A DNA stretch of 64,000 nt from Candidatus Woesearchaeota archaeon (GTDB lineage: Archaea; Nanobdellota; Nanobdellia; Woesearchaeales; UBA119). Where the stretch lies: assembly GCA_030156615.1 (NCBI GenBank), contig JASGME010000002.1:7085-71084 (forward strand), given 5' to 3'. Shown in pieces: positions 45,034 to 64,000 of this stretch. Below the pieces are notes generated by a model. The model had not been told where the DNA came from. It made no database searches and saw only the letters and a program-made list of their open reading frames with translations. A program made the position numbers and the translations under genes. Position 1 is the stretch's first letter. The number at the start of each line of letters is the position of its first letter.

Positions 45034-45795
45034 TTATTCAATCTCCAACCAAAAGTAATATGGAGTCACTTGATTATCTGCGTTGTGACCATTCTCTGCA
45101 ACTAATATCTGGAAATCATAGTTTTTTCCATCATAACCAGTAATGCCTTGTCTTTGTCCTTCAGTTTTATCTTCCAAAATAGCTGTAAAGATTAATGTTG
45201 AGTTGGAATCGCTGGCTAGAAGTACTGCCGGAAAATCTGTGCTTTGGCTTGCGTTGTTTATGAATGTATAAGCTGTTTGGCAGTTGTTTAAGGTAGTATA
45301 CCCAACATAAAACTCTGGATGATTAGTATAATTATAGGTATCGTTTATATCATCATAATCGCTTTCTATCATTCCGTAGAAGTTATACCAATTGGCCCTA
45401 TAATTAGGATCATCGCTAATAGGAGCGCAGTTGATATCTGTCCATGTAATAGTACTGTTTACTGAAGTAAAGACCTCTCCCTGAGGCTCGGCAACAGACC
45501 AATCATAAAACCTAAATCCAGATGCATCTGCTAAGATTATCTCGCCTGTAACATTTCCGAAGTAACCTTGCCATGATTGCGTCTGAGAAACACCAGTTAT
45601 ATCAAGTTCTGTTAGGTTACCTGCAATAGCATCCACTGAATCAGGGATATATAAGCTGTTGTTTGAATGCTCACTTCTTACAACATCAGCTTTTTCTGCT
45701 CCTAATGGAACATTCTGAGCTGTTCCTAAATAAACTGAAAAAAGCCCTATCAGAACAAAAGAAATTACAAAAACCGTTCTATTATCCATTTCCAT
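45034..45795 (-). CDS. Secreted protein, family B paralog (cassette B)
   Basis: Track ORF extends to 45960. The internal Met at 45795 ('MEMDNRTVFVISFVLIGLFSVYLGTAQN') gives a family-typical size (about 253 aa) and signal peptide. 'WQGYFGNVTGEIILADASGFRFYDWSV', C-terminal 'YYFWLEIE'. Confidence 0.6.
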   Translation of the reverse strand: MEMDNRTVFVISFVLIGLFSVYLGTAQNVPLGAEKADVVRSEHSNNSLYIPDSVDAIAGNLTELDITGVSQTQSWQGYFGNVTGEIILADASGFRFYDWSVAEPQGEVFTSVNSTITWTDINCAPISDDPNYRANWYNFYGMIESDYDDINDTYNYTNHPEFYVGYTTLNNCQTAYTFINNASQSTDFPAVLLASDSNSTLIFTAILEDKTEGQRQGITGYDGKNYDFQILVAENGHNADNQVTPYYFWLEIE

Positions 45796-46022
45796 AATAT
45801 CCACCTCTTTTATCTTGTTTTTGATTTTAAAAGTCAGTTTTTGAGGAATTCCAAGGAGCACATAGGCTCTCTCGACTTTTCTCAAAACTGCTTTAATCAA
45901 CAGATATACATAAAAGCACACCAATATATAAATTTTTCTGTTTTGGAGACTCATATACAAAATCTTCTCATAAAATTAAAAAGATATACAAGAGAAACTA
46001 AGAAAATAACTTTTGAAAAGGA

Positions 46023-48733: not shown

Positions 48734-48821
48734 TATTTGATTAATGTAAATACTCAGTTTTTAAATTTTGTTGTTAGACTTACGATGTCTGTTTTGATAT
48801 ATAAAACAGGTTATTTCTTTT

Positions 48822-48929
48822 AAACAAACAAAAGTTTTAAATAGTGAAACAAACAAGGAAGAACAAAACGCATACATAACAATTACAAATAGGCAGTTTA
48901 AGACTACAAGAACATACAAAAACAAACAA
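48822..48929. promoter_or_regulatory. Divergent intergenic region with three AAACAAACAA motifs (48822, 48847, 48920) in an ACA-rich, strand-skewed tract
   Basis: Seen directly. It lies between the ABC ATPase (-) and the tandem RHH genes (+), a candidate operator/promoter region. Confidence 0.3.
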
Positions 48930-48987
48930 ATAAAACGCTTTTTGAATACATAAAGCATACAAAAAGATTACAAAAACATAAGAATAA

Positions 48988-49182
48988 TTGATTAGAATGG
49001 CTAAGATAGAAACTGTAAATGTAAGAATCCCAAGGAAGGTGGTGGATTGGTTAGATAGTTTAATCAGGGAAGGGCTCTACAAATCTCGTTCTGAAGCAAT
49101 ACGAGCCATTCTAAGAGAATATGTTTTAAGCGAAGAGAAAGCTGAAAAATCTGTTTCTTTGGAGGATGAGAGAAATGAATGA
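48988..49182 (+). CDS. Ribbon-helix-helix (CopG/NikR-N-like) DNA-binding protein
   Basis: 'KIETVNVRIPRKVVDWLDSLIREGLYKSRSEAIRAILREYV' is the canonical RHH strand-helix-helix. Confidence 0.55.
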   Translation: MIRMAKIETVNVRIPRKVVDWLDSLIREGLYKSRSEAIRAILREYVLSEEKAEKSVSLEDERNE

Positions 49183-49429
49183 TGTATTAGTTACGATTAG
49201 GATGCCCTCTCCTCTAGTTAAAAGACTTAATTCTTTATGTGAAAAAAACTTTTATATGGACCTTTCTGAGCAGATAAGAGATGTGCTAAACAAGAAGTTT
49301 CTGGAGCATGAAAATCAGAAATCTAATGCCACTAAGAAGAGCTCAAATAAAAAAGAACTAGCATACATGCTTGAAAGGAACGAACAATTACTGAGAGAAT
49401 TAAAAGAATCTTTGAGGAATTTAAAATGA
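49166..49429 (+). CDS. Second small RHH-like protein
   Basis: 'VLVTIRMPSPLVKRLNSLCEKNFYMDLSEQIRDVLNKKFLEH' has the same beta-alpha-alpha pattern. Overlaps both the upstream RHH gene and the downstream giant gene. Confidence 0.4.
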   Translation: MREMNDVLVTIRMPSPLVKRLNSLCEKNFYMDLSEQIRDVLNKKFLEHENQKSNATKKSSNKKELAYMLERNEQLLRELKESLRNLK

Positions 49430-52400
49430 GGAGAAAAATAAAGGGTTTTGGAAAGAGGAATCGTTTTGAAAGAAGGGCCCTTTTTGTTTTCCTTGCATTA
49501 ATTATCGGAATTAACATTTTTTCTGAGATTGATTTGGTTTATTGTGAAGAACCCCAACAAAATCAACAAAGTGAAACCACTCTTGAGCAAGAATCAACGG
49601 ATACAGAGATAAAGTGGACTGGAGAGTATGGCCCTTTGAACAATACAAATATAATCTATTCTCCTGAAGAAGAGATTGTCTTATGGAGCATATGGAACAT
49701 TTCGTCTGAAGGAGATATCGACATTCCAATTAGTCCTGATGGAAATATTTCAGATATAGAAGGGTTAACATGGAATTGTAGGAATGAAATCAATACTGAC
49801 AGCCAATACAACATTTCTTGTAATGCTACAGGAATACCCGCAGGGAACTATACTTGGAGTATATCATTAAACTATGAAAGCGAAGTATATTCTACTCCTT
49901 TATTTAACTTGGGGATTGAGAGAGCTGAGCCAAACATAACATTGAATGTCTCGAAGGAAACTATATATCAAAATGAAACCATAGAGATCTTTGCTAAGAA
50001 TTTTGAAGATGAAGGAACACTCTACCTTTTCAGAAACGGTTCTGAAATTAAGAATTCAACATATAAAATATCAATCAACCAAACATTTGAAGAGCCAGTA
50101 GAATACGAGATAAAATTAGTTTATAATGGCTCCGAGAACTATTTAGAAAAAACTAAAACTGAAACGATTAAGGTGCTACCCCTTGTATTCTCTCTCAATC
50201 TGACAAAAGGAAACTATTATAATTTGGGAGATGAAGTCGAATTTATTTTAGTAGCACCGAATGGATCTAATTCAAAGATAACTATTTACAGACATCTTGA
50301 ACAAAATATTGGATGGTTAAAAACCGAAATGTACATCAATATTGAGAATGAAACATATCCGAAAATAATATCCTTGGGATGCACGAATAAGACTGGTAAT
50401 TATTCAATAGATGCAGAAATAGAATATCTAAACATAACAAAAGAAATTACAAAAGAATACTTTGTATCAAATAGTATTGAAATTGAGATAGATGTTGAGG
50501 TAGAGGGGGATGAAATTGAAATAGATGAGGGAGAAGAGGTATTAATAGGAGAAGAAATAGAATTGGATGCTCTGGTTTCTGGAGGAATTCCTGGTTATAA
50601 TTATACATGGAGATTAGATAACGGGACCTCTCTGACAGGAAGGAGAATTGAACTGGTTTACAATGAGAAAGGAATACATGAAATCAACCTTACTGTAGAA
50701 GACGCAGAAAAAAACAGCAAAAGTAAGTCTATTACGATTGATGTAGATGAAGGGAAAGAGATAACTGTTAGGGTAAAAGATCCTGCTGGGAGGGCTATTG
50801 AATCAGCTTACGTTTCAATTGGAAATAGAAGGGATTATACAAACGAAAATGGAGAAGTAAAGATAAAAGCTCCACTAGGAGAACAAACACTAAGAGTAGA
50901 TAAGGGAAATTATGAAATGTATAGAAGGGTAATTAAAGTTGAAAATGAAGATACAATTGATGTTGTTCTCAAATTAGAAAAACATATTGCAAATAAAATC
51001 AACAGAATAATCCTATTTAATCCAAAAGACAATGTTACTCTGGACTCTAATGAAGTTACATTTTTAGCAGGTGTTAGCAGTTCTGAACCTGCCAAGTGCA
51101 GCGTTTTAATTAAATCAACGGAATCAGACTGGTTTGAAGAGATAAAAAAGTTTGAGGTTGAAGAAAGCTATGCTTTAGAGCTTAATAAGGAATTAGCAAA
51201 AGGAAAGTATCAATGGAAAATAGAATGCCGTATCAACAATCAATATTTTTCATCAGATATTGCGAGTTTTGAAGTTATAACCAGCAAAGAAACTAAAAAT
51301 CAGGAAACAACCATAAAAAGTGAAAAAATTGATGAGAATATTGACATCGGTTCCTTGAGAACTAAGATAGAGGCAGGATTTGAAAATCTTGATAACCTCA
51401 ACATGGAATCAAAAGAAGTAGCAGAAGTGCTTTCTGTTAAAAAAGAGCTTGAGAAGGCACTTCAAACATTTGAAAGAAAGATGCGGGACTTGAACAATCT
51501 ACAATATAGAGATGACTTAAGCAGCGATGAAAAGAAAGAAAAAGCAGAGGGATACCAAGAAGAGTTGAAGGAATTAGAGAAGAAAACAATATCTTTCGTT
51601 GAAGTAATAGACTCAGAAAACTATGTAAATTATCCAAAGAATGAGAAGCTTATCCAGATTGCCTCAACCTATCAAAATGAGAAAAGCATTTTAGGCAAAA
51701 TAGACGAAGATAAACTAAAAGAACTACAGAATAAGCTGTCTGTTGAAACTAAAGTAAGCCATGTTATGCTAAGCTTTCTCGACAATCAAACAAAGAATAT
51801 TACGCTTGTAGAAAAGACTATAACCTATTCGGGAGAAGAAGACAGTAGAATATTCATCTTAGAAGAGATATCAAAAGATTTTGCAGAATCTACAAATGCA
51901 ATTACATTCCTTGAAGAACAAGAAACAATTAAAAAAGATCCTTTAGTAAAATTTGAATTAGAAGAAAAAATAATCTATTACGCTGAGGGATTCAAGGATT
52001 TTGAGAGTATTAAAGAAAGCAACACAATCCTATTCTCAAACAATCTTATCTCTAATGATAAAAACAGAAATCTTATTACTGGAGCCTTCACCATGCAGGA
52101 AGTTGATTTTACCTCACCTATTTTTGGAATAGTATTTATTTCCATTGTAATTGTCATATACATACTCTTTTCAACAGAAGCAGGAGAAAAGATTATCAGT
52201 TTTGCAAGGATCTCCAAGAAGAGAAAGATGAATAAAATAAATTCTTTGATAAATGATTCCTTAAATTATATTGAAGAAGGCGATCTGAACAACGCCAATC
52301 TCGTTTTCAAAGAGATAAAACTCCTATATGAAAAGATGCCTCAACGGATTAAAAAGGAAGCATATGAAAGTGCAATAGGAGTATATGATAAGATAAACAA

Positions 52401-52575
52401 AGCTTACCTCTCAAAACTAATAGATCAGACAATTGATAAAATTAGGAAAGGTGAAAAGTTGAACAAAATAGAAATAATTGAAAGATTAGACCAAGCGTAC
52501 GATATACTTAATGAAGAAGATAAAAAAGAAATGCAAGATGAAGTTGAAAATCTGCTTAAGATAATCAACAAATAA
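49426..52575 (+). CDS. Giant single-pass surface protein (PKD-like and CarbopepD-reg-like domains, coiled coil, TM, cytoplasmic tail)
   Basis: N-terminal TM/signal 'ALFVFLALIIGINIF'. PKD-like 'GYNYTWRLDNGTSLTGRRIELVYNEKGIHEINLTVEDAEKN'. Cna-B/CarbopepD-like 'ITVRVKDPAGRAIESAYVSIGNRRDYTNENGEVKIKAPLGEQTLRV'. TM 'IFGIVFISIVIVIYILF' at about aa 890. About 140-aa helical tail. Confidence 0.7.
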   Translation: MRRKIKGFGKRNRFERRALFVFLALIIGINIFSEIDLVYCEEPQQNQQSETTLEQESTDTEIKWTGEYGPLNNTNIIYSPEEEIVLWSIWNISSEGDIDIPISPDGNISDIEGLTWNCRNEINTDSQYNISCNATGIPAGNYTWSISLNYESEVYSTPLFNLGIERAEPNITLNVSKETIYQNETIEIFAKNFEDEGTLYLFRNGSEIKNSTYKISINQTFEEPVEYEIKLVYNGSENYLEKTKTETIKVLPLVFSLNLTKGNYYNLGDEVEFILVAPNGSNSKITIYRHLEQNIGWLKTEMYINIENETYPKIISLGCTNKTGNYSIDAEIEYLNITKEITKEYFVSNSIEIEIDVEVEGDEIEIDEGEEVLIGEEIELDALVSGGIPGYNYTWRLDNGTSLTGRRIELVYNEKGIHEINLTVEDAEKNSKSKSITIDVDEGKEITVRVKDPAGRAIESAYVSIGNRRDYTNENGEVKIKAPLGEQTLRVDKGNYEMYRRVIKVENEDTIDVVLKLEKHIANKINRIILFNPKDNVTLDSNEVTFLAGVSSSEPAKCSVLIKSTESDWFEEIKKFEVEESYALELNKELAKGKYQWKIECRINNQYFSSDIASFEVITSKETKNQETTIKSEKIDENIDIGSLRTKIEAGFENLDNLNMESKEVAEVLSVKKELEKALQTFERKMRDLNNLQYRDDLSSDEKKEKAEGYQEELKELEKKTISFVEVIDSENYVNYPKNEKLIQIASTYQNEKSILGKIDEDKLKELQNKLSVETKVSHVMLSFLDNQTKNITLVEKTITYSGEEDSRIFILEEISKDFAESTNAITFLEEQETIKKDPLVKFELEEKIIYYAEGFKDFESIKESNTILFSNNLISNDKNRNLITGAFTMQEVDFTSPIFGIVFISIVIVIYILFSTEAGEKIISFARISKKRKMNKINSLINDSLNYIEEGDLNNANLVFKEIKLLYEKMPQRIKKEAYESAIGVYDKINKAYLSKLIDQTIDKIRKGEKLNKIEIIERLDQAYDILNEEDKKEMQDEVENLLKIINK

Positions 52576-52583
52576 AAAGGAAG

Positions 52584-55500
52584 ATGGAAAAAAGAAAGAG
52601 AAAGGATGTTTTAAACAAGGACATTGAACATATTATAGAAAGAGAACCTGCCTTAGAGAAATTTTTAGATGAAAGAAACAAAAGAAGAATTGAGAGTAAA
52701 AACAACTGGACAATTATTATCTTTCTTATAGTATTCGCAATAATTCTAATAACTGCCTCAATCCTGAAATATGAAGGGATTACCGGATTATTTGTATATC
52801 ATGAGGGCAAAGGCGGATATATATATAATATGAATTTAGAATATAGAAGACCAACCTTTAATTGGGTAGCTCTCTATGGAGCTGCATTCGGAGTCGGATT
52901 TTCACAGCCTTGGGAATTTACCTTTGAACCAGGAGAAACAGAAGAAGCCAATATGTTCTTTGAGTGTGTAGAACAAGGAAAGGATAACCTCTTGTTTGCA
53001 TCTACTGTGCCGCCTGAAGAGATAAATGTGCAGGAACTTGCTCCAATGTCAACATACGATATTGATGCATTTATAAACACAGACCCAAACAATTATGATT
53101 CTGCTTCAAACACATTTACCGAAACAATGAGTATAGAGATTGGCTCTACTGTTATAAACAACATTCCGACCGCTACAACTAAGGTTGGTGATGATACAGA
53201 AGAAGGAACATTTAAAACAGGTCTTTTGAAGGACACAAATGGGAATCCTGTTATAGTAACCATCCTTAATGATAAACTAGTCAAAGGATTCAACAACCGT
53301 TACTATAACTACCAATTTCTACTTCCAGTACATAACAATGAAACCACCAAATATTACATTTTCATTGATCCAACGAATGTTTGTATGTCAGGAACAGAAG
53401 AGCCTTATATAGAAGGAACAGTATATGGAACAGTTAATGACATAAGTGGGAATCCATTAGAGGATGTGCTAATTACCTCAGGCCCAAAATCAACGGTCAC
53501 TGATGAAAAAGGATTTTATAATCTGACAACAGCGGCGGGGGAGACTCTGATTATTGCGATAAAAGAGAGGTATCAGGTTTATGAGAGCAATATTACCATC
53601 CCAGAACTAAATTCTACAGAGCATAACATCATTATGGAACTTGAGACTGAAAAGCAGAAAGAGTATGAAACCCCGCCGATGGAACAAAATGTTGGACCTG
53701 ATTTTGGGCCTGGGGTTGGTCCTGGCGAGATCCCTTATGTAGAAGAGAGACCTTCAGAGATTGAGGGAAAGGAATTTTGGGTTTCTGTCAAAGAGATAAT
53801 CAAGAAGATTAGAGAAGATGAGTTTGCTCAGGAGGTCATTCACATACAGAATTTTAAGAATACTGGGATGCTACTTCAATTCAACATAACCGGTGACGTA
53901 AGAAAACTTGCAATGCTGGATAAAAAGGATATGTTTATCGGTGCAAAAGATTTAGACGATTTAACCATTACTTTCTTTGGCAATAGTTCTCCCGGGATAT
54001 ATAATGGAAGCCTAGATATTAGTGGCGAGATTAATCATAGTATACCAATAAAGATTGAGATTCTAGATAAAGATAAAACTCAAGTCCAAGCATTGCTGAT
54101 GGAAGTCCGTGTGCCTGATAAGAGTTATTATCCGAGTTCGCTTGTTAGATTTGAGACTGCACTTACGAATATGCTTACTGACCAGCAGTATCCAGTTGGA
54201 CTTACATATACTATACAGAATATTGATGGAAATGAAACATTATGGACTCATCAGACAAATGTATTCCTTAGAACCTCTATGTCTATCCTAAAGAACTACG
54301 AATTGCCTCCGAATGTATCCCCTGGAGAATACATCATACGGGTTAGCGCAAGTTATCTTGATTTAACGAGCAGTTCTACTGCTCTGTTCACAGTTACAGA
54401 ACCATTCTTACAACATCTTCTGTTTGGAAAGATAAGGGTTTGGCAGGCGTTAGTTGGTGGGATTGGCTTGGCTCTCTTGATATTTGGTATATTATTGATT
54501 AAGAAGGAGAGAGAATCTAAGAAGAAGTACAATCTCAAAGTTGAATATTCACAACTCCCAAAGCCCGGGACTGGCACGATTTTTGTTGGAAAGATTGCTG
54601 AGACTAACAACAAAGCCTATTTTGAGGTTGATAATTTTAAGACTCACACGATTGTTGCTGGTAGTACTGGTAGTGGTAAGAGCTTTGCAGCTCAAGGGCT
54701 TGTCGAAGAATTGCTGGAGAAGGGGGTATCAGTTATTGTCTTTGATCCAACTGCCCAATGGACTGGTTTCTTGAGGAAGCTTGAGGACAAGGGACTTCTC
54801 AACCTTTATCCAGGGTTTGGAATGAAACCTAATGAAGCGAAGTCTTTTAAGGGCAATATTAGAGAGATTACTGATCCAAGGGAAATTATAAACATCAAAG
54901 AGTACATGAAACCGGGGGAAATTCAGGTTTTCGCACTCCATAAGCTTGATCCAAAAGATATGGATATTTTTGTAGCAAACACGGTTAGAGAGGTTTTCCA
55001 CGAGAATTTTGATGAATCGCGGGAGCTAAGGCTTTGCCTTGTTTACGATGAGGTCCATAGATTGCTTTCAAAGTTTGGCGGTAGCGGTGAGGGCTTCATA
55101 CAGATTGAAAGGGCTTGCAGAGAGTTTAGGAAGTGGGGCATAGGTGTAATCCTTATCAGTCAGGTTTTGGCGGACTTTGTTGGACAGATTAAAGCTAATA
55201 TCAATACAGAAGTGCAAATGAGAACTAGGGATGAAGGAGATCTTGAAAGGATTAAAACAAAGTATGGAGATGATGTATTGAAGAGTTTGGTTAAAGCGAG
55301 TGTAGGAACTGGAATGGTTGAGAATGCTGCATACAACAGGGGCCGCCCTTACTTCATTACATTCAAGCCAATCAGACATTCGGTAGAGAGGCTATCCGAT
55401 GAGGAGATTGAAAAATATAATGAGTATAATGACATTATAGATCAGATGCAGTATGAACTGGAACAGCTTGAAAAACTTGGCCAAGATGTATTTGACTTGA

Positions 55501-56531
55501 AATTGGAGTTAAAGCTTGCTCTTGATAAAGTAAAGGCAGGCGGATTCAACATGGCACAGATTTACATCGATGGCTTGAAGCCGAGGATTGAGAAGCTCTG
55601 GAAGAAGCTTGGAAAGGAGCCAAAGAAGTTGGAGAGGAAGAAGGTTTCTGAAGAAGAGATGAAGGAAGAGTTAGAGAAGGCTAAGAAAGAAAGAGAAGAA
55701 GCTATGGCCAAAGAAAAGAATAAAGGAGACAAAGATGAGAAGAAGGAGGAATCTCCAATTGAACGGTTTAACGAAGATGTTCCACCGGATAAAATGCTGA
55801 AGCTCAATAATGGAATGCTTGTAGTTAACCCAAGAAACTTGTATGCAGAGATTGAAGCGATGAAAGAATCTGTATTCAAATCTCATGTGAATGAGAATAA
55901 GAACGACTTCGCCGAATGGTTTAGAGATGCGGTAGGAGATTATGAGCTCGCAGAACTCCTTGAATCAACCAGAGACAAGAAGAAGATTTTGGAATTGTTG
56001 GACAGGAGAAGCAAAGGAGAGAAACTGTCTGAAGTGGAAATGAAGAAAGAAGATGAGAAGGAAGCGGATATTGAGCAATCAGGTGATAAGACAAAAGAGA
56101 AAGTGGAGAAAGAGAGAGATGAAGAAGGAGATAAAGAGAAAAAAGACGATGAAGAAAACAAAGAAAGAAAGGAAGATAATGAAAGAAATATAAGCAAAGA
56201 TGATGAGAAAAAAGATAATGAAAAGGATGCCTCTTCCAACTCAAAAGGTGACATAGAACTTGATGAGATACTTAAAAAGAGGGCTCCAAAAGGCAAGGAA
56301 TTCAAGTTCTCAAACGGCAAAGAGGCATCTAATCTTGAGGAGTTAGTTGAAACTCTGAAGGATATGCCCGAAGAGGAATTCATTAGTTATGTTAATAAAG
56401 ATAAGCACGATTTCTCAAACTGGGTAAGATATTCTTTAGAGAATGATGAGCTCGCTGATAAGCTATCAAAGATTATGAGCAAGGACAAGCTCATAGAGGC
56501 GTTGTCAAATGGTAGAAGAAAAGAAGAGTGA
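52584..56531 (+). CDS. Bitopic membrane protein: N-terminal TM, about 560-aa ectodomain, second TM, cytoplasmic HerA/FtsK-superfamily (DUF87-like) P-loop ATPase, and 2x repeated C-terminal module
   Basis: TM1 'IIIFLIVFAIILITASIL'. Ectodomain with CarbopepD-reg-like 'YGTVNDISGNPLEDVLITSG...TDEKGFYNL'. TM2 'ALVGGIGLALLIFGILLI' (about nt 54438-54503). Walker A 'TIVAGSTGSGKSFAAQGLVEELLEKGVSVIVFDPTAQW' (HerA 'GxTGSGKS...DPhGEY' pattern). Walker B 'CLVYDEVHRLL'. Two tail modules ('LKLNNGMLVVNP...KNDFAEWFRDAVGDYELAELL' and 'FKFSNGKEASNLEEL...KHDFSNWVRYSLENDELADKL') separated by K/E/D-rich linkers. Confidence 0.75.
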   Translation: MEKRKRKDVLNKDIEHIIEREPALEKFLDERNKRRIESKNNWTIIIFLIVFAIILITASILKYEGITGLFVYHEGKGGYIYNMNLEYRRPTFNWVALYGAAFGVGFSQPWEFTFEPGETEEANMFFECVEQGKDNLLFASTVPPEEINVQELAPMSTYDIDAFINTDPNNYDSASNTFTETMSIEIGSTVINNIPTATTKVGDDTEEGTFKTGLLKDTNGNPVIVTILNDKLVKGFNNRYYNYQFLLPVHNNETTKYYIFIDPTNVCMSGTEEPYIEGTVYGTVNDISGNPLEDVLITSGPKSTVTDEKGFYNLTTAAGETLIIAIKERYQVYESNITIPELNSTEHNIIMELETEKQKEYETPPMEQNVGPDFGPGVGPGEIPYVEERPSEIEGKEFWVSVKEIIKKIREDEFAQEVIHIQNFKNTGMLLQFNITGDVRKLAMLDKKDMFIGAKDLDDLTITFFGNSSPGIYNGSLDISGEINHSIPIKIEILDKDKTQVQALLMEVRVPDKSYYPSSLVRFETALTNMLTDQQYPVGLTYTIQNIDGNETLWTHQTNVFLRTSMSILKNYELPPNVSPGEYIIRVSASYLDLTSSSTALFTVTEPFLQHLLFGKIRVWQALVGGIGLALLIFGILLIKKERESKKKYNLKVEYSQLPKPGTGTIFVGKIAETNNKAYFEVDNFKTHTIVAGSTGSGKSFAAQGLVEELLEKGVSVIVFDPTAQWTGFLRKLEDKGLLNLYPGFGMKPNEAKSFKGNIREITDPREIINIKEYMKPGEIQVFALHKLDPKDMDIFVANTVREVFHENFDESRELRLCLVYDEVHRLLSKFGGSGEGFIQIERACREFRKWGIGVILISQVLADFVGQIKANINTEVQMRTRDEGDLERIKTKYGDDVLKSLVKASVGTGMVENAAYNRGRPYFITFKPIRHSVERLSDEEIEKYNEYNDIIDQMQYELEQLEKLGQDVFDLKLELKLALDKVKAGGFNMAQIYIDGLKPRIEKLWKKLGKEPKKLERKKVSEEEMKEELEKAKKEREEAMAKEKNKGDKDEKKEESPIERFNEDVPPDKMLKLNNGMLVVNPRNLYAEIEAMKESVFKSHVNENKNDFAEWFRDAVGDYELAELLESTRDKKKILELLDRRSKGEKLSEVEMKKEDEKEADIEQSGDKTKEKVEKERDEEGDKEKKDDEENKERKEDNERNISKDDEKKDNEKDASSNSKGDIELDEILKKRAPKGKEFKFSNGKEASNLEELVETLKDMPEEEFISYVNKDKHDFSNWVRYSLENDELADKLSKIMSKDKLIEALSNGRRKEE

Positions 56532-57012
56532 GGAGGTTCAAAACTCGGAAGAGAATAAAGAAGATGATGGAGACAAGAAAGAAAAAAGAGATCTAGGAAA
56601 AATGGAGCTTGACAGAGTAATGAACATTTCGGAGAAATACTTAGAGAAAGTCAATAGAATGAAGATGCTTGCTGGAAAGGATTTACGAGAGAACATCGAA
56701 AAGGTAGAAGAGCTAAAGGAAAAACTTAGAGAGTTTGAAGGAGAGATTTCAGCAGCCAGAAAAACAGGAAAGAATATGTTCCATTCTTCATCCTTTTTAA
56801 AACTGGCTAAAGGAAAGATTGGAATACTTGAGATTGAATATAATGAAGAAGAGATAGATAAAATGATTGAGCTTATAAATGAGATTGGGGAGCAAATCAA
56901 GGAGGATAAAGATAGGAAGGTGTTTGATTTGAGGAGCGAAATAATGATGAAGGCAAAGGATAATATAAGCAAAGAGTCAAAAGAAGAATCACAAGAAAAG
57001 ACAGATGAATAA
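56509..57012 (+). CDS. Acidic coiled-coil protein (possible start at internal Met 56602)
   Basis: K/E-rich helical sequence with heptad character. 5' end overlaps the ATPase gene in another frame. No family recognised. Confidence 0.45.
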   Translation: MVEEKKSEEVQNSEENKEDDGDKKEKRDLGKMELDRVMNISEKYLEKVNRMKMLAGKDLRENIEKVEELKEKLREFEGEISAARKTGKNMFHSSSFLKLAKGKIGILEIEYNEEEIDKMIELINEIGEQIKEDKDRKVFDLRSEIMMKAKDNISKESKEESQEKTDE

Positions 57013-57065
57013 AGATAGATAAAAAAGGTTATAATAAAAGATGATATGAGAAAGGGGGTGAGATT

Positions 57066-57953
57066 ATGTGGCCATTTAAAAGGAAACCGAGCGATGAGGA
57101 ACTGATTCAGCAGAATCTGGAAAATGAAAAAAAAAGAGTGGAGGTTGGAAATAGCTCTGAAGAGAACAACTTTGATGAGTCAAAGTTGGGTATAGAACTG
57201 ATAAAACTCAGTGCTAAGGTTGAAGGATTGAGTGAAGAAAGAAAAGCCATTAATGAAAGGTTTTCCAAGATAAATGAAGAGATTGGAGAGCTGAGAGGCA
57301 TTCTGACAGATACATCAAAAACTATTGCAAATCTTGAAACTGCTGCCACTAAGGCAATTGATCTTGTTGAATCAGTCAAACCCGAGACCCTGATGGTTGA
57401 AGTCAGAAAGGTTGATTCAAAGACAGAGGCTCTAAAGGCAAATATTGAAAGCAATGAGTCTCTTGCCAAGAATGTATTGGAGCAACTGAAACAGATGCAG
57501 AACAAGATAAATTTCTATAAGGGGGTTGAACAGGTAACTAAGCTTAATGATGAAATTAAGGATGAGTTGATTGAGATAAAGAAAAGAGAAGCCACAGTAG
57601 AGAGGCATTCTAATAAGGTTGAGTCTATGTTTGTTGAGGTTGAGAAGAGATTCTCTGAATTTGATAAGTTCAATGATGTTACTAAGAATCTTCAAAGGAG
57701 TTTTGACAAGCTTCAGGGTGATTTTGATAAGCTAAAGGTTGAGATAGACAAGAAAGCTGACAAGAATGAGATGGTTACATTCATCAAGAAATTCAACAAG
57801 TTTGAGAAGCACACTACTAATCTAATAAACATGCTTGACGACAAGACAAAATCAACGATGGAAGAATTAAAGAATAAGTTTTCAAAACTCTCCAAAGAGA
57901 TTAAAGAGGAGGTTGAAGATTCCCTTAAGAAGATAAAGGAAAATAGCAAATAG
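57066..57953 (+). CDS. Coiled-coil protein (295 aa)
   Basis: Continuous heptad-rich helical sequence ('...KTIANLETAATKAIDLVESV...'), cytoplasmic in character. Encoded between the ATPase and the giant adhesin. Confidence 0.5.
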   Translation: MWPFKRKPSDEELIQQNLENEKKRVEVGNSSEENNFDESKLGIELIKLSAKVEGLSEERKAINERFSKINEEIGELRGILTDTSKTIANLETAATKAIDLVESVKPETLMVEVRKVDSKTEALKANIESNESLAKNVLEQLKQMQNKINFYKGVEQVTKLNDEIKDELIEIKKREATVERHSNKVESMFVEVEKRFSEFDKFNDVTKNLQRSFDKLQGDFDKLKVEIDKKADKNEMVTFIKKFNKFEKHTTNLINMLDDKTKSTMEELKNKFSKLSKEIKEEVEDSLKKIKENSK

Positions 57954-57968
57954 AAATAAGGATTTCAG

Positions 57969-60900
57969 ATGCAAAAAAGAAAAATTATTGGAGGTTTGTT
58001 AGTTTTAATCATATTCCTGATTTTAGGTAATCAGGGCTCTTTTTCTGAGATTCAGGATTCTGCTGTTTCTTTTGCCCCTCTTGAAAAGGAGGCATATGGA
58101 ATTAATGAAAGTATAGAGATTGAGCTACTTCCTAAAGAGATTAATGGAATTGATGTTTCCAACGAATATGATTTGGTGATGGTTAAAGAAGATCTGAGAA
58201 GCAAGTATTTTGGTGAGCTGTTTTTTCCTCTTGTGCTAAGTTTTTCTGAGCCGGGAGAATATATAATGTTTTTAATTAATAATCAAGGGGAAGAGATTAG
58301 TCGTCTGAAATTTGTTGTTTCTGATGATAAAGATAGCAATGTGACGAAAAAAGAGGCAGATAATGATAGGTATCCTGTGCTTAAGATAAGCTCAAACATG
58401 CTTGCTAAGGGAGAAGAATTGATAATTTCGCTTTTGGAAGGCGATATTACCGATTCCTCATTGGATCTATATATCACCCATGAAAATAAGAATTTCAAGT
58501 TGTTAGAGCTTTCCAGAGAGGTTAGATTTACTCCTTCTAAAGAGGGAGAATATCGAGTTCAGCTCAGGGATGATGAAAAGGTTGTTGATGAGATGATTTT
58601 TTATGTTGAAGAAAAAAGCAATAACGAAAAAAGCGAGAATAAAGAGATGTTGCCTAAAAGAGAAACTGGAGGAGAATTTAACCTTTCTTCTTTGAATCAA
58701 GAAAAAAGGCTTGCAACTATTCCAGTTAGGGCAAAGAATCACAAAGGGCAAACGAAAGAGCTTATTGGAGTCCTAGGGAGCTCTTTTCGAGGAGAATTTG
58801 TTGAAGTTGTTAATGCAACAAACAATATAAAAAGAATCAGAGTCTATGATCTGAAGCTGAACAACATTAATGAACTGAAGATAGAGGATATTGATAATAA
58901 AGAGGTTTGGGTAAACCGGGAGAAGAGCGTACAATCCTTTGCAATTGATCCACGGGCTTTGAATTTCTCATTTGCTCAGATTGAACTTGAGGCAAAAGGA
59001 ACTGCATTGTATAAATGCGAGGAGTATGATTTCGATACACAAGAATGTTTTGGTGGCTGGAAGAAAGAAAGGAACATTGTTCCTGGAGAGAATTATACTA
59101 TTGTGCTTACCCCTGAGGATCCTTTGTACAGCGAAATAAACACTTCTGTCGGATGCAGCTGCTCTGATTCGGCAAATCGGCAGACTAGCGGAACACTCTC
59201 CTGTTCTACTTTCTGCCCTTTTAACATAGACATCCCTGAAGATGCAATGAGTTTTTTCCTTCAAGAGATTTATTATGACATTACTGTTACTGTGAATAAC
59301 GATAGATGTACAATGACAAATGCTCAGCAGAGAGGATATTTTGACCATGATCAAAATCAAGGGGATGGTGATGAAGCTATTATAGGGAGCAGTTCTTATA
59401 CTTCAACCACATCAACAACATGGACAAATTCAAGCATTGCACAATCAGGTTCTTATTCTTTCACTAACCTTGATTGCAGCAATTGGCCTAATTATTGCAC
59501 TTATTATGTATACATTAATTCAAGCATGGATTTTACTTCGCCATTTGGGTTACTTAGGAGAAGTCCTAGTATGACTATTTCTGTTGATGCTATAAATTAT
59601 ACTATCAACTATACAGAAGCAGGCTCCTTCTCAGTATCCCTTGATTCGCCATTTCACCTATACAGGACGAATGCAACTATACAAGAATTTACATATACCC
59701 CAAGCAATGAAGATTATTCTATCAGCAACTGTTCTATATATACTAATGAAACAAGCTGGAGCGTGAAGAATACTACTTATTCTATCACAAACGGAAGTCA
59801 GAACACAATAACAGCAGAGTTCAATAATGAAGGACATTATGCCTGGAATGTGAGGTGCTGGGATTCTAATGGGAATAACGCTACTTCTGCAACAAACAGA
59901 ACTATTATTATCGATAGGACTGGTCCTGAGATTGCTCTTGTTTCTCCAGCAAACGAAGAAACATATACAGATTCAAATGTTGTTTCCTTTACCTATAATG
60001 TGAGCGATGATTCAGATATTGATAATTGCACTTTATACATAAATGGAATTGCTAAGAAAACAGACAGTTCTATATCAAAGGGCCAAAACCAGATTATATA
60101 TTATAACCTTAACAATGGAGATTATACTTGGTCCATTGGCTGCATTGATGAAGCAGGGAATTTTAATCAAAGCAGCTCACGAGATCTCACTGTAGCAGCG
60201 ATCAAGCCAATTTATTATGGAAGCTGGTATGAATCTTCTTCCAATGATTGCACAATATTCCCTTGTGAAATTTCTTTACAGCAGCAGAACGATGGAACCC
60301 AGAATTCTATTTCTGGAACAATACCTGCTTCTGCTTCTGAGCTGATAATCAAAGCAGAATCTCCTTTTATGGGAGCGAACGGTGCAGAAATATCTACTTC
60401 AAATGTACTTTTCAGCACTTATTTTCAAACATCTAATAGCAGAGTAGAAGTAAGCTGGTGGTTATATATCCTGAACAGCTCTGATGGAAAAGAGTTGATA
60501 TGCTCAAATACATTAGGAACAGCAAGTTCTTCTGGAGCAGCTACAACAGGGAGTTGTACACCTTCTAGCGACAAGAGACTTCTTAGCACTGACAGGTTAT
60601 ACTATGAAATAGAACTTACAAACACATTTCCCATATTTTCAAGGAATTTCAATCATCTTATTGATCATGTCTCAAGCTTTGTAAATATTACTGGTTTTAC
60701 CCAGTTGGGAAATCTTGAAGCAACAAAAACCTCTCCATCTTCTACATTATACATTAATCAAGGTGAATCTTTTATATTATCATGTGATGTGAATTGCAGT
60801 GCTGGAAGTTGTCTTAATACAAATGTAACAGCAGAGACCAATGAATCGGGAAGCTGGAACGTCATATCTTCTTCAGGGATTGTATCGCTTAATGGAAGCG

Positions 60901-63900
60901 AGAACAATCCTCATGTCATGGGCAATATCTTCAACACTTCCAATTCAACCTCTTTCAGCTTGAATGGCTCTTCTCCGGGCTCTACTTATGTTAGGTGTGC
61001 TGCTCAAAGTAAGTATTCTACTTCTTATACAGAACCTGTTAAGATAAATGTAATAAGTACTGAAGCACCAGAGGTAAATCTTATTTCTCCTGAGAATGAA
61101 AGCTGGATAAACAGTTCAAGCGTTATCCTTAAATATATCCCATCATCATATAACGAGATTGCCAACTGCAGTCTATATATTGATGGAATTTTTAATCAGA
61201 CCAATTCCAGCCAGATAAACAATGGAGGAACTAATACTTTCACCATCTCATCACTTGAGCAAAAAGAATACAATTGGAGCGTCTCCTGTACTGATACTTA
61301 TTCAAGAACAGGGAATTCTTCTACATGGAAGTTCAATGTAGATTATAATAAGCCTTATATGATTGAGCTTAACGAACCTATTGATGAGTTTAGCACTACC
61401 TCTCCAGATATTGAATTTAACTGGACCGCATATGATAATATTGCTTCTAACATGAGCTGTGATTTAAGAATTAACGGATCTGTCAACAAATCCATTATTG
61501 CATATAATGGAAGCCCTGCAAATACCACAATTTATGATTTAGATATTGGTCATTATGTCTGGGATGTTGTATGCATGGATTGGGCAAATAATTCAAATAC
61601 CTCAGAAACAAGAAGCTTTAATATCTCTGATGAACCTCCTTATGTCTCTTTATATTCCCCTGAGAATGAAAGCGGGACAAACGAGACAACTGTTGAATTT
61701 ACATATAATGCTTATGATAATTTTGCTCTGGCGGAATGTAAATTGTATATCAATGGGGAATATAATCAAAGCAATCAAACTGAGCTGATAAATGGATTGA
61801 ACAATTTTAGTGTTAGTTTTGAGGAAGGAATATATAATTGGAGCGTTAGTTGTTACGATAACAAAGACAATAGTGCTTCAACAGGAAATGCAACCCTTTA
61901 TGTTGATTTCACTAAACCAGAGATTGGCCTTCAGGCTCCTGCTCCTGAAGCCTATTTCACTGATTCGAAGATTAGTTTTTCTTATACACCAACTGACAAC
62001 TATCAAGAGTTAAATTGCACTTTGTATGTTGACGGAATTGAGAATGATCATTCGGAAGTAATCAGCGGAAGCCAGTACGATGTTACCTTGACTGGATATA
62101 AAGACGGAGTTCATTATTGGAATGTGAGCTGCACGGATATTGGAGGAAATATCAATTATTCTGAGACAAGGAATTTTACTATAAACCAAACCCCTATTGT
62201 TGAGCCCATATCTCCATTAAATAATACACATACGAATCAGGACAATGTAATCATAGAATATAATGTAAGCGATAATGATGAGATTGGGAGTTGCAGCTTG
62301 TTCATTAATGGAAGTTTTAATCAGACTAATTCTACAGCGATATCAAAGGATCAGGTAAACAACTTTACACTTTCTTTCCCTTCAGAAGGAGAATATAACT
62401 GGTCAGTGGAATGCAACGATAGTGGGACATATAGCAATTCTAATGAATCTTATGTTTGGAATTTTATCGTAGATAGGACGGGTCCAAAAGTCTCATTAAA
62501 CCATCCTGAGAATGACTATACAATTAACACTCCGCTCTACACATTTAATTGGACAGTTGAGGATAATTTCGCTACTGGGCTTCTCTGTAACATTACTATA
62601 AACGATAGCGTTAATGGGAGCAATATTGAAAGCAATAATGGAGCTCCTACCTTGTTTAATGTGACTGGACTAAGGAACGGAGATTTTAATTGGAGTGTTA
62701 CCTGCGCAGACAATGCAACTAATACTAATACCTCTGAGACTTGGAATTTTACAGTACTTCTTATTCCTAGGGTTGACCTTACAAGCCCAGAAGACGGAGA
62801 CGGTGATTTATTTCATGATGTAACATTTAAGTATATACCAAGTTTGGGGAGCGAGAATTTTATCAATTGCAGCCTTTGGTTAAATGGAGAGGAAAACGAA
62901 ACAAGTTATGATATAACTGCTAATGCAGAGAATAACTTTACTGTTAATCTGCCTGATGGAAAATATGAATGGAATGTAAAATGTTATGACAGCAACAATC
63001 TTGATGGAATGGCTAAAGAGAACTGGACTTATTATGTGGATTCAGAAGTGCCTTATGATATAGAATTGTTATATCCTGAAAATGATTCTATTGTTGAAAG
63101 AAACAATGTATCCTTCAAGTTTATACCAAAGGATAAGGTTTCAGATGAGTTAAGCTGTGATATTTATCTAACTGATGAGGAATTCACTTATAAAATAGGG
63201 TCTGATTTGAATGCAACCAATGGAAGTGAATATGTCTATTATTCTGTTTTAGAAGATGGAAGTTATAATTGGAGCGTGGACTGCACTGATAAGGCAGGAA
63301 ACTTTAATGTATCTGATACCTTTTACTTTGATGTTTTGGCGCCACCAAATGTTACTTTAGTTGCACCTGATAATGAAACCTGGTTCAATGAAACAGATGT
63401 GAATCTTACTTATTTTCCTTCAGATGACATACTAATAACTGGCTGTGCTCTATACATAAATGGGAGCTATGAGAAGTCGGCATCTTTTGTATTGAACAAC
63501 CAGAACAATACCTTTGAGCTAAACGATATTTCACAGGGGGAATATCTATGGAGTGTAAAATGTTATGACAGCGATGGAAACAGTTTTATGCCTGTGAATA
63601 AGACTTTCTATGTGGATAATCAGACTCCTAAGATTTTCCTAAATCATCCAACTAATTCAGAAGAGCTGGACTCAAGCTCTGTAACGTTTAATTGGACTGT
63701 AAATGATAATCTTGCAAAAAAGCTTAGTTGCGACCTCTTGATTAATAATAGTCCCAAAGAAACGAATATAATGAGCAACAATGGAGAGCCGACTAACTTT
63801 ACCATTGAAGGAATGGATGACGGAGATTATAACTGGAGCATTGTATGTAGGGACAATGCTCAGAATTCAAATCAAAGCAGCACTGAGGACTTTTCAGTGC

Positions 63901-64000
63901 AGGAGCCACCAAAGATAAGCTTAGGAGATCCTGTTGAAAATAATAGAAACAATTCTGTTAATATGACTCTGTATTTTACGGCAACAGACAACTCCGGTGA
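57969..64000 (+). CDS. Giant repeat adhesin-like surface protein, 3' partial (>2010 aa, continues beyond window)
   Basis: ATG at 57969, preceded by in-frame TAA at 57957. N-terminal signal 'IIGGLLVLIIFLILG'. Traced codon by codon with no in-frame stop to the window end. Not in the supplied track because it has no stop codon. Confidence 0.75.
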   Translation, partial: MQKRKIIGGLLVLIIFLILGNQGSFSEIQDSAVSFAPLEKEAYGINESIEIELLPKEINGIDVSNEYDLVMVKEDLRSKYFGELFFPLVLSFSEPGEYIMFLINNQGEEISRLKFVVSDDKDSNVTKKEADNDRYPVLKISSNMLAKGEELIISLLEGDITDSSLDLYITHENKNFKLLELSREVRFTPSKEGEYRVQLRDDEKVVDEMIFYVEEKSNNEKSENKEMLPKRETGGEFNLSSLNQEKRLATIPVRAKNHKGQTKELIGVLGSSFRGEFVEVVNATNNIKRIRVYDLKLNNINELKIEDIDNKEVWVNREKSVQSFAIDPRALNFSFAQIELEAKGTALYKCEEYDFDTQECFGGWKKERNIVPGENYTIVLTPEDPLYSEINTSVGCSCSDSANRQTSGTLSCSTFCPFNIDIPEDAMSFFLQEIYYDITVTVNNDRCTMTNAQQRGYFDHDQNQGDGDEAIIGSSSYTSTTSTTWTNSSIAQSGSYSFTNLDCSNWPNYCTYYVYINSSMDFTSPFGLLRRSPSMTISVDAINYTINYTEAGSFSVSLDSPFHLYRTNATIQEFTYTPSNEDYSISNCSIYTNETSWSVKNTTYSITNGSQNTITAEFNNEGHYAWNVRCWDSNGNNATSATNRTIIIDRTGPEIALVSPANEETYTDSNVVSFTYNVSDDSDIDNCTLYINGIAKKTDSSISKGQNQIIYYNLNNGDYTWSIGCIDEAGNFNQSSSRDLTVAAIKPIYYGSWYESSSNDCTIFPCEISLQQQNDGTQNSISGTIPASASELIIKAESPFMGANGAEISTSNVLFSTYFQTSNSRVEVSWWLYILNSSDGKELICSNTLGTASSSGAATTGSCTPSSDKRLLSTDRLYYEIELTNTFPIFSRNFNHLIDHVSSFVNITGFTQLGNLEATKTSPSSTLYINQGESFILSCDVNCSAGSCLNTNVTAETNESGSWNVISSSGIVSLNGSENNPHVMGNIFNTSNSTSFSLNGSSPGSTYVRCAAQSKYSTSYTEPVKINVISTEAPEVNLISPENESWINSSSVILKYIPSSYNEIANCSLYIDGIFNQTNSSQINNGGTNTFTISSLEQKEYNWSVSCTDTYSRTGNSSTWKFNVDYNKPYMIELNEPIDEFSTTSPDIEFNWTAYDNIASNMSCDLRINGSVNKSIIAYNGSPANTTIYDLDIGHYVWDVVCMDWANNSNTSETRSFNISDEPPYVSLYSPENESGTNETTVEFTYNAYDNFALAECKLYINGEYNQSNQTELINGLNNFSVSFEEGIYNWSVSCYDNKDNSASTGNATLYVDFTKPEIGLQAPAPEAYFTDSKISFSYTPTDNYQELNCTLYVDGIENDHSEVISGSQYDVTLTGYKDGVHYWNVSCTDIGGNINYSETRNFTINQTPIVEPISPLNNTHTNQDNVIIEYNVSDNDEIGSCSLFINGSFNQTNSTAISKDQVNNFTLSFPSEGEYNWSVECNDSGTYSNSNESYVWNFIVDRTGPKVSLNHPENDYTINTPLYTFNWTVEDNFATGLLCNITINDSVNGSNIESNNGAPTLFNVTGLRNGDFNWSVTCADNATNTNTSETWNFTVLLIPRVDLTSPEDGDGDLFHDVTFKYIPSLGSENFINCSLWLNGEENETSYDITANAENNFTVNLPDGKYEWNVKCYDSNNLDGMAKENWTYYVDSEVPYDIELLYPENDSIVERNNVSFKFIPKDKVSDELSCDIYLTDEEFTYKIGSDLNATNGSEYVYYSVLEDGSYNWSVDCTDKAGNFNVSDTFYFDVLAPPNVTLVAPDNETWFNETDVNLTYFPSDDILITGCALYINGSYEKSASFVLNNQNNTFELNDISQGEYLWSVKCYDSDGNSFMPVNKTFYVDNQTPKIFLNHPTNSEELDSSSVTFNWTVNDNLAKKLSCDLLINNSPKETNIMSNNGEPTNFTIEGMDDGDYNWSIVCRDNAQNSNQSSTEDFSVQEPPKISLGDPVENNRNNSVNMTLYFTATDNSG
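61065..64000 (+). repeat. At least 11 tandem ~285-290-nt (~95-aa) protein-coding repeats inside the giant adhesin gene
   Basis: Repeat units begin near 61065, 61350, 61630, 61915, 62190, 62480, 62770, 63050, 63340, 63620 and 63905. Each has 'P(E/D)N..(T/S)...', 'NC(S/T)L(Y/W)ING..N(Q/E)(T/S)' and '(Y/F)NWSV.C.D..(G/N)N'. Two earlier, more divergent copies lie near 59,900-60,190. Confidence 0.75.

Follow-up and report, generated by a model that had tools for sequence, protein, structure and literature searches.

A 64,000-nucleotide stretch of a Candidatus Woesearchaeota archaeon genome (assembly GCA_030156615.1, contig JASGME010000002.1), referred to here as the window, ends in an operon that is built around a predicted membrane-tethered ATPase, termed g4. 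The open reading frame (ORF) map and the translations delimit seven co-directional genes on the + strand, which extend from position 48,997 to the window end and encode two ribbon-helix-helix (RHH) proteins, a surface protein (g3), the ATPase (g4), two helical proteins (g5 and g6) and a giant secreted protein (g7). The genes and the parts of g4 are as follows (E-values refer to the profile named; HMM, hidden Markov model; AF2, AlphaFold2; aa, amino acids; nt, nucleotides):

48997-49182 (alternative start 48988), +: RHH1, small DNA-binding protein of the RHH type that opens the operon (Pfam RHH_1, E=6.9e-8)
49166-49429, +: RHH2, longer second RHH-like protein (RHH_1, E=1e-3, under the cut-off) with overlaps of 17 nt with RHH1 and 4 nt with g3
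49426-52575, +: g3, type I surface protein of 1049 aa (Pfam PKD and CarboxypepD_reg)
52584-56531, +: g4, predicted membrane-tethered HerA/DUF87 ATPase of 1315 aa that resembles the nanohaloarchaeal SPEARE proteins (Pfam DUF87, hydrophobicity, sequons, model of a homolog)
52767-54443, +: g4 ectodomain, residues 62-620 (AF2 model of a homolog; 10 sequons)
54561-55463, +: g4 ATPase domain, about residues 660-960 (DUF87, HerA and PADLOC mad8 matches)
55797-56003, +: first DUF5752-like module of g4, about residues 1072-1140 (local HMM, E=8e-32)
56301-56504, +: second DUF5752-like module of g4, about residues 1240-1307 (local HMM, E=1.4e-25)
56509-57012, +: g5, acidic helical cytoplasmic protein of 167 aa (D+E 27.5%), overlapping g4 by 23 nt
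57066-57953, +: g6, all-helical protein of 295 aa (ortholog matches, AF2 model)
57969-64000 (runs off the window), +: g7, giant secreted surface protein with immunoglobulin (Ig)-type repeats (Pfam Big_13, E=1e-28; Big_7, E=1.4e-12)

The junctions between RHH1, RHH2, g3, g4, g5, g6 and g7 measure, in this order, -17, -4, +8, -23, +53 and +15 nt, and 53 nt is the widest gap. A preliminary description of the window, made from the letters and a list of ORFs, had reported co-directional + strand genes with tiny or overlapping junctions, and its coordinates and lengths are exact in the ORF map. Pfam likewise returned the domains that it had named, i.e., RHH, PKD/CarboxypepD_reg in g3, a HerA-type domain in g4 and repeats in g7, with RHH2 remaining under the cut-off. 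A further component-like gene, at 39816-42989, lies outside the region that had been delimited.

Two hydrophobic segments are present in g4, an N-in signal anchor at residues 43-61 and a second transmembrane (TM) helix, TM2, at residues 621-639, and the cytoplasmic flanks of both are rich in Lys and Arg. From the N- to the C-terminus, the protein consists of the anchor, the ectodomain at residues 62-620, TM2, the cytoplasmic ATPase, a coiled coil, a low-complexity E/K linker and two DUF5752-like modules. Ten N-glycosylation sequons fall into the 559-residue ectodomain and only one into the 676 cytoplasmic residues, and the same contrast is seen across the family, with 1.9 sequons per 100 aa in the ectodomain versus 0.27 in the cytoplasmic part, a 7-fold enrichment outside. 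A TM helix precedes the Walker A motif by 30-110 residues in 130 of 133 family representatives. The positive-inside flanks, the sequon contrast and this TM spacing support a cytoplasmic P-loop domain and an external, sequon-rich part. The preliminary description had also put the P-loop on the cytoplasmic side, behind a single TM helix and with about 560 aa outside; side and size agree with our analysis, and the single helix has to be replaced by a signal anchor plus TM2.

The ectodomain of g4 is adhesin-like, composed of beta-sandwich domains and rich in glycosylation sequons. Its structure was approached via P0010, a homolog that is 57% identical to g4 and whose AF2 run used 20 sequences. The model (predicted local distance difference test score, pLDDT, of 75-90 in the ectodomain) shows a beta-sandwich domain followed by CarboxypepD_reg, a linker of Gly, Pro and Asp and, next to the membrane, two Ig-like domains; in g4 itself, residues 279-351 match Pfam CarboxypepD_reg below the cut-off. 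A Foldseek search with the P0010 model returned only generic matches to tandem beta-sandwich (Ig/fibronectin type III) proteins. The coiled coil that follows the ATPase corresponds to helices 929-1036 of the model, and this region is conserved in the family alignment.

Judged by its sequence, g4 is an ATPase of the HerA/FtsK superfamily with intact catalytic motifs that start about 50 residues past the TM helix. Walker A (AGSTGSGKS, residues 692-700, nt 54657-54683) and Walker B (LVYDE, residues 819-823, nt 55038-55052) are invariant in the family alignment. Residues 666-738 match Pfam DUF87, the HerA central domain, with E=1.1e-11 and thus exceed the Pfam cut-off; residues 665-912 match PADLOC mad8 (E=2.6e-18), which is the best full-domain profile and is followed by several anti-phage HerA models. 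The ATPase also matches Sulfolobus HerA (4d2i, E=3.7e-10) in an alignment that begins at HerA residue 118, and the family profile matches anti-phage HerA structures. The proposed membership of the cytoplasmic region in the HerA/FtsK superfamily, for which the preliminary description had suggested profile searches, is therefore borne out by DUF87, 4d2i and mad8. Matches to VirB4/TraC, CedD, TraD, TrwB, IcmO/DotL and FtsK are weak, span little beyond the P-loop and stay under the curated cut-offs. The NCBIfam scores of g4 are 33 bits for CedD (cut-off 600), 32 for TraC (cut-off 567) and 26 for TraD (cut-off 366), while TrwB_AAD_bind yields 23.8 bits over 45 residues around the P-loop only; Pfam FtsK_SpoIIIE, which at 23.0 bits falls just short of its cut-off of 24, and a weak ResIII match are also confined to the P-loop region. 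The Pfam scan of g4 detected a single ATPase domain and found neither the VirB4 N-terminal domain PF03135 nor FtsK gamma/winged-helix or FHA domains. Thus, the domain appears closer to HerA/DUF87 than to VirB4/TraG. It deviates from HerA in reading SQVL where HerA usually has an SQRP motif, and in the absence of the HAS-barrel, for which the approximately 50 residues between TM2 and Walker A leave no room.

An exhaustive search with the g4 ATPase domain gave 366 clusters (50% identity) at E<=1e-30, of which the best 150 representatives were analysed. These proteins range from about 400 to 6253 aa, always carry the ATPase near the C-terminus and have intact Walker motifs. The median length of their N-terminal, presumably extracellular part is 864 aa (5-95% range, 221-4,240 aa), and family ectodomains of about 200 to 5,600 aa are found on one conserved motor. 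Giant members resemble g4 over their last 600-700 residues only. At the other extreme, short paralogs of 772-837 aa consist of a cleavable-looking signal peptide, two Ig-like domains, a TM helix, the ATPase and one tail module. Family members that have been named are 'DUF87' or 'HerA-like' proteins of Woesearchaeota/Nanoarchaeota.

The gene order around g4 is conserved across genomes. A scan of species-representative genomes yielded at least 556 confirmed stretches that encode g4 relatives, and 79 loci were kept, most of them titled Woesearchaeota, Nanoarchaeota or Pacearchaeota, several just 'archaeon', while others look mislabelled. The seven proteins of the window served as queries against the ORFs called in 86 loci, and the counts are given only over loci with enough flanking sequence. 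Upstream of the ATPase, RHH1 and RHH2 are each present in 53 of 57 loci, and g3 lies directly upstream in 52 of 57; downstream, g6 is found in 54 of 61 loci, an ORF of 1000 aa or more on the + strand in 34 of 46 and a detectable g7 homolog in 24 of 46. Gene order is kept in more than 50 loci of different genomes, with protein identities of 40-75%, unrelated flanking genes and overlapping stop/start junctions. This persistence amid different flanks implies that the core RHH-RHH-g3-g4-g5-g6 has been inherited as a unit, to which the giant adhesin is a common yet replaceable addition. The preliminary description had placed giant adhesins alongside the ATPase; g4 homologs do co-localise with surface-protein genes in most genomes (g3 and the large downstream ORF), and the giant is frequent rather than universal. 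Within the operon, the cytoplasmic parts are much more conserved than the surface parts. The system is real, conserved and lineage-wide in records of Woesearchaeota, Nanoarchaeota and Pacearchaeota.

Some loci show peculiarities of their own. Metagenome-assembled genomes (MAGs) of one assembly series that are titled 'uncultured Methanosarcinales archaeon', with one 'Candidatus Saccharibacteria bacterium' (L008-L010, L012, L013 and others), carry this Woesearchaeota-type operon at 52-74% identity, so that their taxon labels seem to have been misassigned. The full operon is also present in 'Euryarchaeota archaeon SM23-78' (L020). In L085, an extra membrane protein of 512 aa (8398-9936, +) is encoded between a g3-like gene and a short ATPase paralog. 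It combines a signal peptide and a small ectodomain with a TM helix and four cytoplasmic CBS domains (E=3.5e-43), a hint that the system of some lineages may include a sensor of nucleotides or ligands. In L006, ftsZ (3328-4398, -) and a second, 837-aa ATPase paralog (5734-8247, +) lie beside a 1468-aa paralog, an arrangement that is also present in L072; the paralogous copy of L006 lacks the RHH-g3 genes and has a divergent HTH/S_layer_C gene upstream instead. In L089, a prepilin-peptidase gene (Peptidase_A24; 7614-8465, +) is located about 1.5 kb upstream of a 4862-aa ATPase fusion, with two minus-strand HIT-family genes in between; as a neighbor in a single locus, it may be a coincidence.

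Among the cytoplasmic partners, g6 is the most constant. It was previously described, together with g5, as one of two acidic coiled-coil proteins; g5 is indeed acidic, whereas g6 is not (K+R 19.7%, D+E 20.7%) and belongs to a strongly conserved family rather than being a generic coiled coil. Orthologs are found at E=1e-45 to 1e-152 across the loci, and 27 columns are invariant over 40 sequences. None of the 167 database matches of the family has an informative name; most are called 'hypothetical', and a few bear unspecific JGI labels, e.g., 'chromosome segregation ATPase'. A Pfam domain is lacking in nearly all of them; g6 itself is identical (100%) to P0021, a protein of a Candidatus Woesearchaeota MAG. 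Members start with an MxLFKKK motif (MGLFKKK in g6), and a similar basic motif is often present near the C-terminus. The AF2 model of g6 (pLDDT 73.5) shows long helices at residues 38-102, 106-227 and 233-294, and relatives were found neither by a PDB profile search nor by Foldseek. A g6 homolog also follows the paralogous ATPase copies without an upstream RHH-g3 set in L006, L072 and L076, and one lies directly downstream of P0181, the 4862-aa giant ATPase fusion of L089 (32% identity, E=3e-33). Thus, g6 is a constant partner of the ATPase, even beside paralogs with ectodomains that are thousands of residues long. A membrane-remodelling role of the ESCRT-III/PspA type, suggested by the MGLFKKK start and a weak PspA match, was considered for g6 and rejected, as 40 members gave no Snf7/PspA match and the PDB and Foldseek searches gave none either; the sole PspA signal is TIGR02977 with E=7e-4 and 19 bits against a cut-off of 243. 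WXG100 had no match in g5 or g6.

Proteins at the g5 position are acidic and variable in length, and those of most loci carry a DUF5752-like module, which is not detectable in the g5 of the window; L079 differs in that a helical motif recurs in its g5-position protein and in the g3 cytoplasmic tail. The module of about 65 aa occurs in two copies in the tail of g4, which on its own matches Pfam DUF5752 with E=1.6e-10 and 41 bits against a cut-off of 23. It recurs in a g3 paralog encoded upstream of the operon, the cytoplasmic tail of which ends in a DUF5752-like module (about nt 42759-42974; local HMM, E=7e-16) and matches the two g4 tail modules with E=2e-10 and 1e-9. The module is therefore common to the tails of g4, g5-type proteins and the g3 paralog, and cytoplasmic modules that are shared by several surface proteins and the motor tail fit a single assembly. 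No literature was found on DUF5752/PF19027.

The surface proteins of the system share dense glycosylation sequons, and two further genes of the window bear on them:

39816-42989, +: g3 paralog of 1057 aa, upstream of the operon (BLASTP to g3, E=1e-11)
3154-5922, -: AglB/STT3 oligosaccharyltransferase (Pfam STT3, E=4e-41)

In g3, a signal/anchor at residues 20-38 is followed by a PKD domain (375-436), a CarboxypepD_reg domain (446-516), a TM helix (899-917) and a helical cytoplasmic tail of about 130 aa, and the ectodomain is rich in sequons. The paralog, about 6.4 kb upstream of the operon, has a signal/anchor, an ectodomain, a TM helix and a cytoplasmic tail of about 270 aa; its similarity to g3 lies in the membrane-proximal region, and it gave no Pfam match at E<=1e-5. 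Within the window, g7 exceeds 2010 aa and starts with an N-terminal signal/anchor. In the near-identical contigs L087 and L088, its full length is 3137 aa, without a C-terminal TM helix. In L087, the g7 gene is followed by a hydrophobic ORF of 80 aa (16466-16708, +), just beyond what corresponds to the window end. The 2010 aa of g7 contain 101 sequons (5 per 100 aa), and the presence of AglB/STT3 in the window fits the very dense sequons of g3, the g4 ectodomain and g7.

Of the two putative regulators, RHH1 has the cell-division regulator CdrS as its best NCBIfam match (E=2.2e-9; 37 bits, where the cut-off is 100). This regulator has been reported as undetected in DPANN archaea (PMC7439475). 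An assignment of RHH1 as a CdrS ortholog was rejected, because the score is below the cut-off and the next genes are g3 and g4 rather than those expected from ftsZ2 synteny; the match is kept as a lead only.

The preliminary description knew of no characterised system with such a composition. This does not hold, as the SPEARE or 'giant membrane-anchored' proteins share the architecture of g4 and a g4 ortholog is listed among them (PMC6642349, PMC10266531). According to Hamm et al. 2019 (PMC6642349), nanohaloarchaeal SPEARE proteins are mostly extracytoplasmic and have a TM helix close to the C-terminus. Their conserved cytoplasmic region was interpreted by the authors as a type III restriction enzyme and is labelled P-loop/DUF87 in the supplementary tables; the authors also mention similar sequences from Woesearchaeota and further DPANN archaea. 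Table S3 of this work, which contains the sequences of the SPEARE-domain phylogeny, includes KYK27349.1 (AYK26_03765) of 'Euryarchaeota archaeon SM23-78'. By exact-sequence look-up, KYK27349.1 is the g4 ortholog of L020; it is 49% identical to g4, and its g6 neighbor is AYK26_03775. In Reva et al. 2023 (PMC10266531), no endonuclease is recognised in the SPEARE domain, which is relabelled as a VirB4/TraG-like secretion-type ATPase; serine protease, laminin-G and toxin-like domains are disputed, a C-terminal coiled coil is noted, e.g., in SVXNc_0300, and the giant proteins are proposed to act as secretion 'straws'. The functional idea of the preliminary description coincides with this published secretion hypothesis.

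Signal/anchor, adhesin-type ectodomain, TM helix, cytoplasmic P-loop domain and C-terminal coiled coil follow each other in SPEARE proteins in the same order as in g4 (PMC6642349, PMC10266531), and Woesearchaeota paralogs of g4 also reach giant size, up to 6253 aa. Differences exist as well. With 559 of its 1315 aa (43%) outside, g4 is not a giant, and the giant adhesin is encoded separately; Pfam finds in g4 no protease, laminin-G or toxin-like domain, which the original SPEARE definition includes; and the gene after SPEARE encodes a VirB4-family ATPase in nanohaloarchaea (PMC10266531), whereas g5 and g6 follow g4. The locus can thus be described as a Woesearchaeota variant of the SPEARE type that is split, short in its ectodomain and embedded in an operon. 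Relative to the accessible portions of the two papers (PMC6642349, PMC10266531), new features are the conservation of the operon with its partner families, the pairing of the ATPase with g6, the shared tail module and the breadth of the family in Woesearchaeota and Pacearchaeota. The ectodomain sizes of about 200 to 5,600 aa and the closer match to HerA than to VirB4 are further additions.

Other known systems share single traits with g4. HerA proteins, in HerA-NurA as well as in anti-phage systems, provide the best matches of the ATPase in Pfam, PDB, NCBIfam and PADLOC, but g4 differs from them by its predicted membrane tether and ectodomain and by the lack of a HAS-barrel, and the seven genes include no NurA, Sir2 or DUF4297 partner. 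Type IV coupling proteins and VirB4-like ATPases (VirD4/TrwB/TraD; CedB/CedD) resemble g4 in having an N-in hairpin of two TM helices followed by a cytoplasmic FtsK/HerA-superfamily ATPase; their extracellular loop comprises tens of residues versus 559 in g4. The Ced system (CedB/CedD) imports DNA in Crenarchaeota. No pilin, VirB6-like protein, relaxase or second ATPase is encoded in the operon, and a scan of the ten largest ORFs elsewhere in the window found no components of type IV secretion or Ced systems. FtsK/SpoIIIE and EssC/EccC belong to this superfamily as well; they are ring ATPases with a membrane anchor and push DNA (FtsK) or helical proteins (EssC) toward or through the membrane, and EssC operons likewise encode small helical proteins. 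In contrast to them, g4 has one ATPase domain instead of three and a large ectodomain, and gamma, FHA and WXG100 domains were not detected. In the gliding of Mycoplasma mobile, an internal ring ATPase of the RecA fold drives giant surface 'legs' through the membrane. This comparison concerns the way of working only, since the proteins are unrelated (F1-ATPase paralogs), bacterial, and the motor and the surface protein are not covalently fused.

We tentatively propose, at somewhat less than even confidence, that the operon encodes a SPEARE-type ATPase system that moves a polymer across the symbiont membrane at cell contacts. As deduced from the superfamily, g4 would form a ring, like HerA, FtsK, VirD4 and EssC, which all thread DNA or protein, and this ring would lie flat under the membrane. 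The shared tail modules and the long helices of g6 would tether the surface proteins to this ring and organise the assembly, and ATP hydrolysis would push a polymer, either a protein effector or DNA, across the membrane of the symbiont. Translocation would take place at contacts in which another cell is gripped by the variable ectodomains together with the giant Ig-repeat protein, and the RHH pair would regulate the operon. For the membrane-spanning contact or transfer device of the preliminary description, this means that a coherent apparatus is supported, while contact and transfer stay at the level of a proposal.

Several points weigh against this proposal. No substrate, channel protein or further secretion-system component was identified in the operon, and the mature g4 subunit has one or two TM helices, which are few for a pore. 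Ring and pore features are an assumption from the superfamily, and the ATPase part of the AF2 model has a pLDDT below 50. The N-terminus of g7 is of an ordinary Sec type, so that a special exporter is unnecessary for this protein. The near-universal, syntenic and strongly conserved cytoplasmic parts would suit a housekeeping role equally well. For Woesearchaeota, the function is read from the genes, and the probable membership of g4 in the SPEARE-type family depends for its homology on the published table in which KYK27349.1 is listed.

A more specific design, which we consider rather doubtful, is a self-contained, envelope-spanning translocon that would be unrelated to the type IV, type VII and Ced systems in its composition. 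Its hexameric motor of the HerA type would be covalently continuous with six extracellular beta-sandwich stalks that serve as conduit or docking collar; g3-type proteins would plug in via DUF5752-like tails, and g6 would act as coiled-coil stator or adaptor. Such a machine would be the general means to exchange protein or DNA with hosts in Woesearchaeota, Pacearchaeota and, in its fused giant form, Nanohaloarchaeota. Somewhat less probable still is an explanation outside all those considered here.

The conservation pattern would also suit a housekeeping role in division or chromosome clearing. In this case, g4 would be a functional analog of FtsK/SpoIIIE, with a membrane anchor, a ring-shaped DNA pump and a long linker, and g6 a membrane-associated coiled-coil scaffold. 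The RHH pair would regulate the cell cycle, while contacts of the ectodomains would be with the envelope of the cell itself at septation. The near-universal, syntenic core and the far better conservation of cytoplasmic parts than of surfaces agree with this idea, and so do the short basic amphipathic motifs at both ends of g6, which look like membrane-targeting sequences. Further leads come with points against them: CdrS is the best NCBIfam match of RHH1 (E=2.2e-9), but with 37 versus 100 bits and with CdrS reported absent in DPANN archaea (PMC7439475); FtsK_SpoIIIE reaches 23.0 bits against the cut-off of 24, but the FtsK gamma/winged-helix domain was not detected in g4; and ftsZ lies near the paralogous copy in L006, but as a neighbor it was counted for this one locus only. 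Moreover, paralog ectodomains with thousands of residues of adhesin-type repeats would be needless for a division protein. We regard a role in division as unlikely.

Alternatively, nothing might cross the membrane, and g4 could be a force transducer, in which the ATPase would alter the conformation, clustering or tension of surface proteins via the TM helix and the tail modules, much as the internal ATPase does for the surface 'legs' of Mycoplasma mobile, and thereby cause adhesion, release or movement on the host. The covalent fusion of the motor to an adhesin-like ectodomain in every member would suit this arrangement, as would the lack of a channel component in the operon, the presence of the motor-tail module in several surface proteins and the long coiled-coil partner. 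However, known members of the HerA/FtsK superfamily work by threading polymers rather than by pulling on the anchor that holds them, one TM helix would make a poor lever, and the mechanism is without known archaeal precedent. It is improbable to the same degree as a role in division.

Defence by DNA degradation, in which a nuclease and the ATPase would capture and destroy incoming DNA, corresponds to the original SPEARE reading or to HerA-based anti-phage systems. It draws on mad8, a defence ATPase, as the best full-domain profile, on the anti-phage HerA models and structures that follow, on the weak ResIII match of g4 and on the type III restriction enzyme proposed by Hamm et al. 2019 (PMC6642349). 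The ResIII match is however limited to the P-loop, an endonuclease domain was not found by Reva et al. 2023 (PMC10266531), the operon encodes no nuclease, Sir2, DUF4297, NurA or methyltransferase, and the PADLOC matches concern the ATPase alone. In addition, the HAS-barrel of HerA is missing from g4, and the genes are core and syntenic, unlike patchy defence islands. We regard a defence function as very improbable. A chance juxtaposition of surface-protein and ATPase genes has a negligible likelihood: a g7-type giant is missing downstream in about one quarter of the loci and g7 homology is detectable in 24 of 46, but for the core RHH-RHH-g3-g4-g5-g6 chance is refuted by the same order in more than 50 loci with unrelated flanks.

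How DPANN archaea attach to and take up material from their hosts is an open question, for which hardly any molecular machinery has been described. The SPEARE-type ATPase has so far been treated as an oddity of a few nanohaloarchaeal giant genes, and our analysis suggests that these giant proteins are fusions within a broader modular system. The locus offers the same motor in a short and split form, which is hence more tractable, together with a fixed parts list, in which two regulators are accompanied by another surface protein, an adaptor that shares modules and a coiled-coil partner. It also corrects the domain label toward HerA and away from a restriction enzyme or VirB4. The machine is likely central to DPANN-host biology.

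The remainder of the window, which has a GC content of about 34%, looks chromosomal and contains ABC-2 transporters, AglB/STT3 and many unannotated genes. ORFs of 300-590 aa at 35150-36850, 37716-39488, 45034-45960, 10624-12123 and 29701-30948 gave no Pfam match at E<=1e-5. An origin from a mobile element, virus or plasmid was rejected, because no phage matches were obtained, plasmid DUF87 genes are only about 25% identical and the flanks are chromosomal (ABC transporters, AglB/STT3). Across g3-g6 (50001-58000), the coding strand shows strongly positive skews, of up to 0.41 for GC and up to 0.33 for AT, well above the remaining window, which probably reflects Lys/Glu/Asn-rich coding. Between a divergent ABC-transporter gene and RHH1, a gap of 263 nt (48734-48996) contains many ACAAA(C)AA repeats, and a 65-aa minus-strand ORF within it (48761-48958) is probably spurious. 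The region, in which a TTTTAAATA box is found at 48835-48843, is a possible operator site for the RHH proteins.

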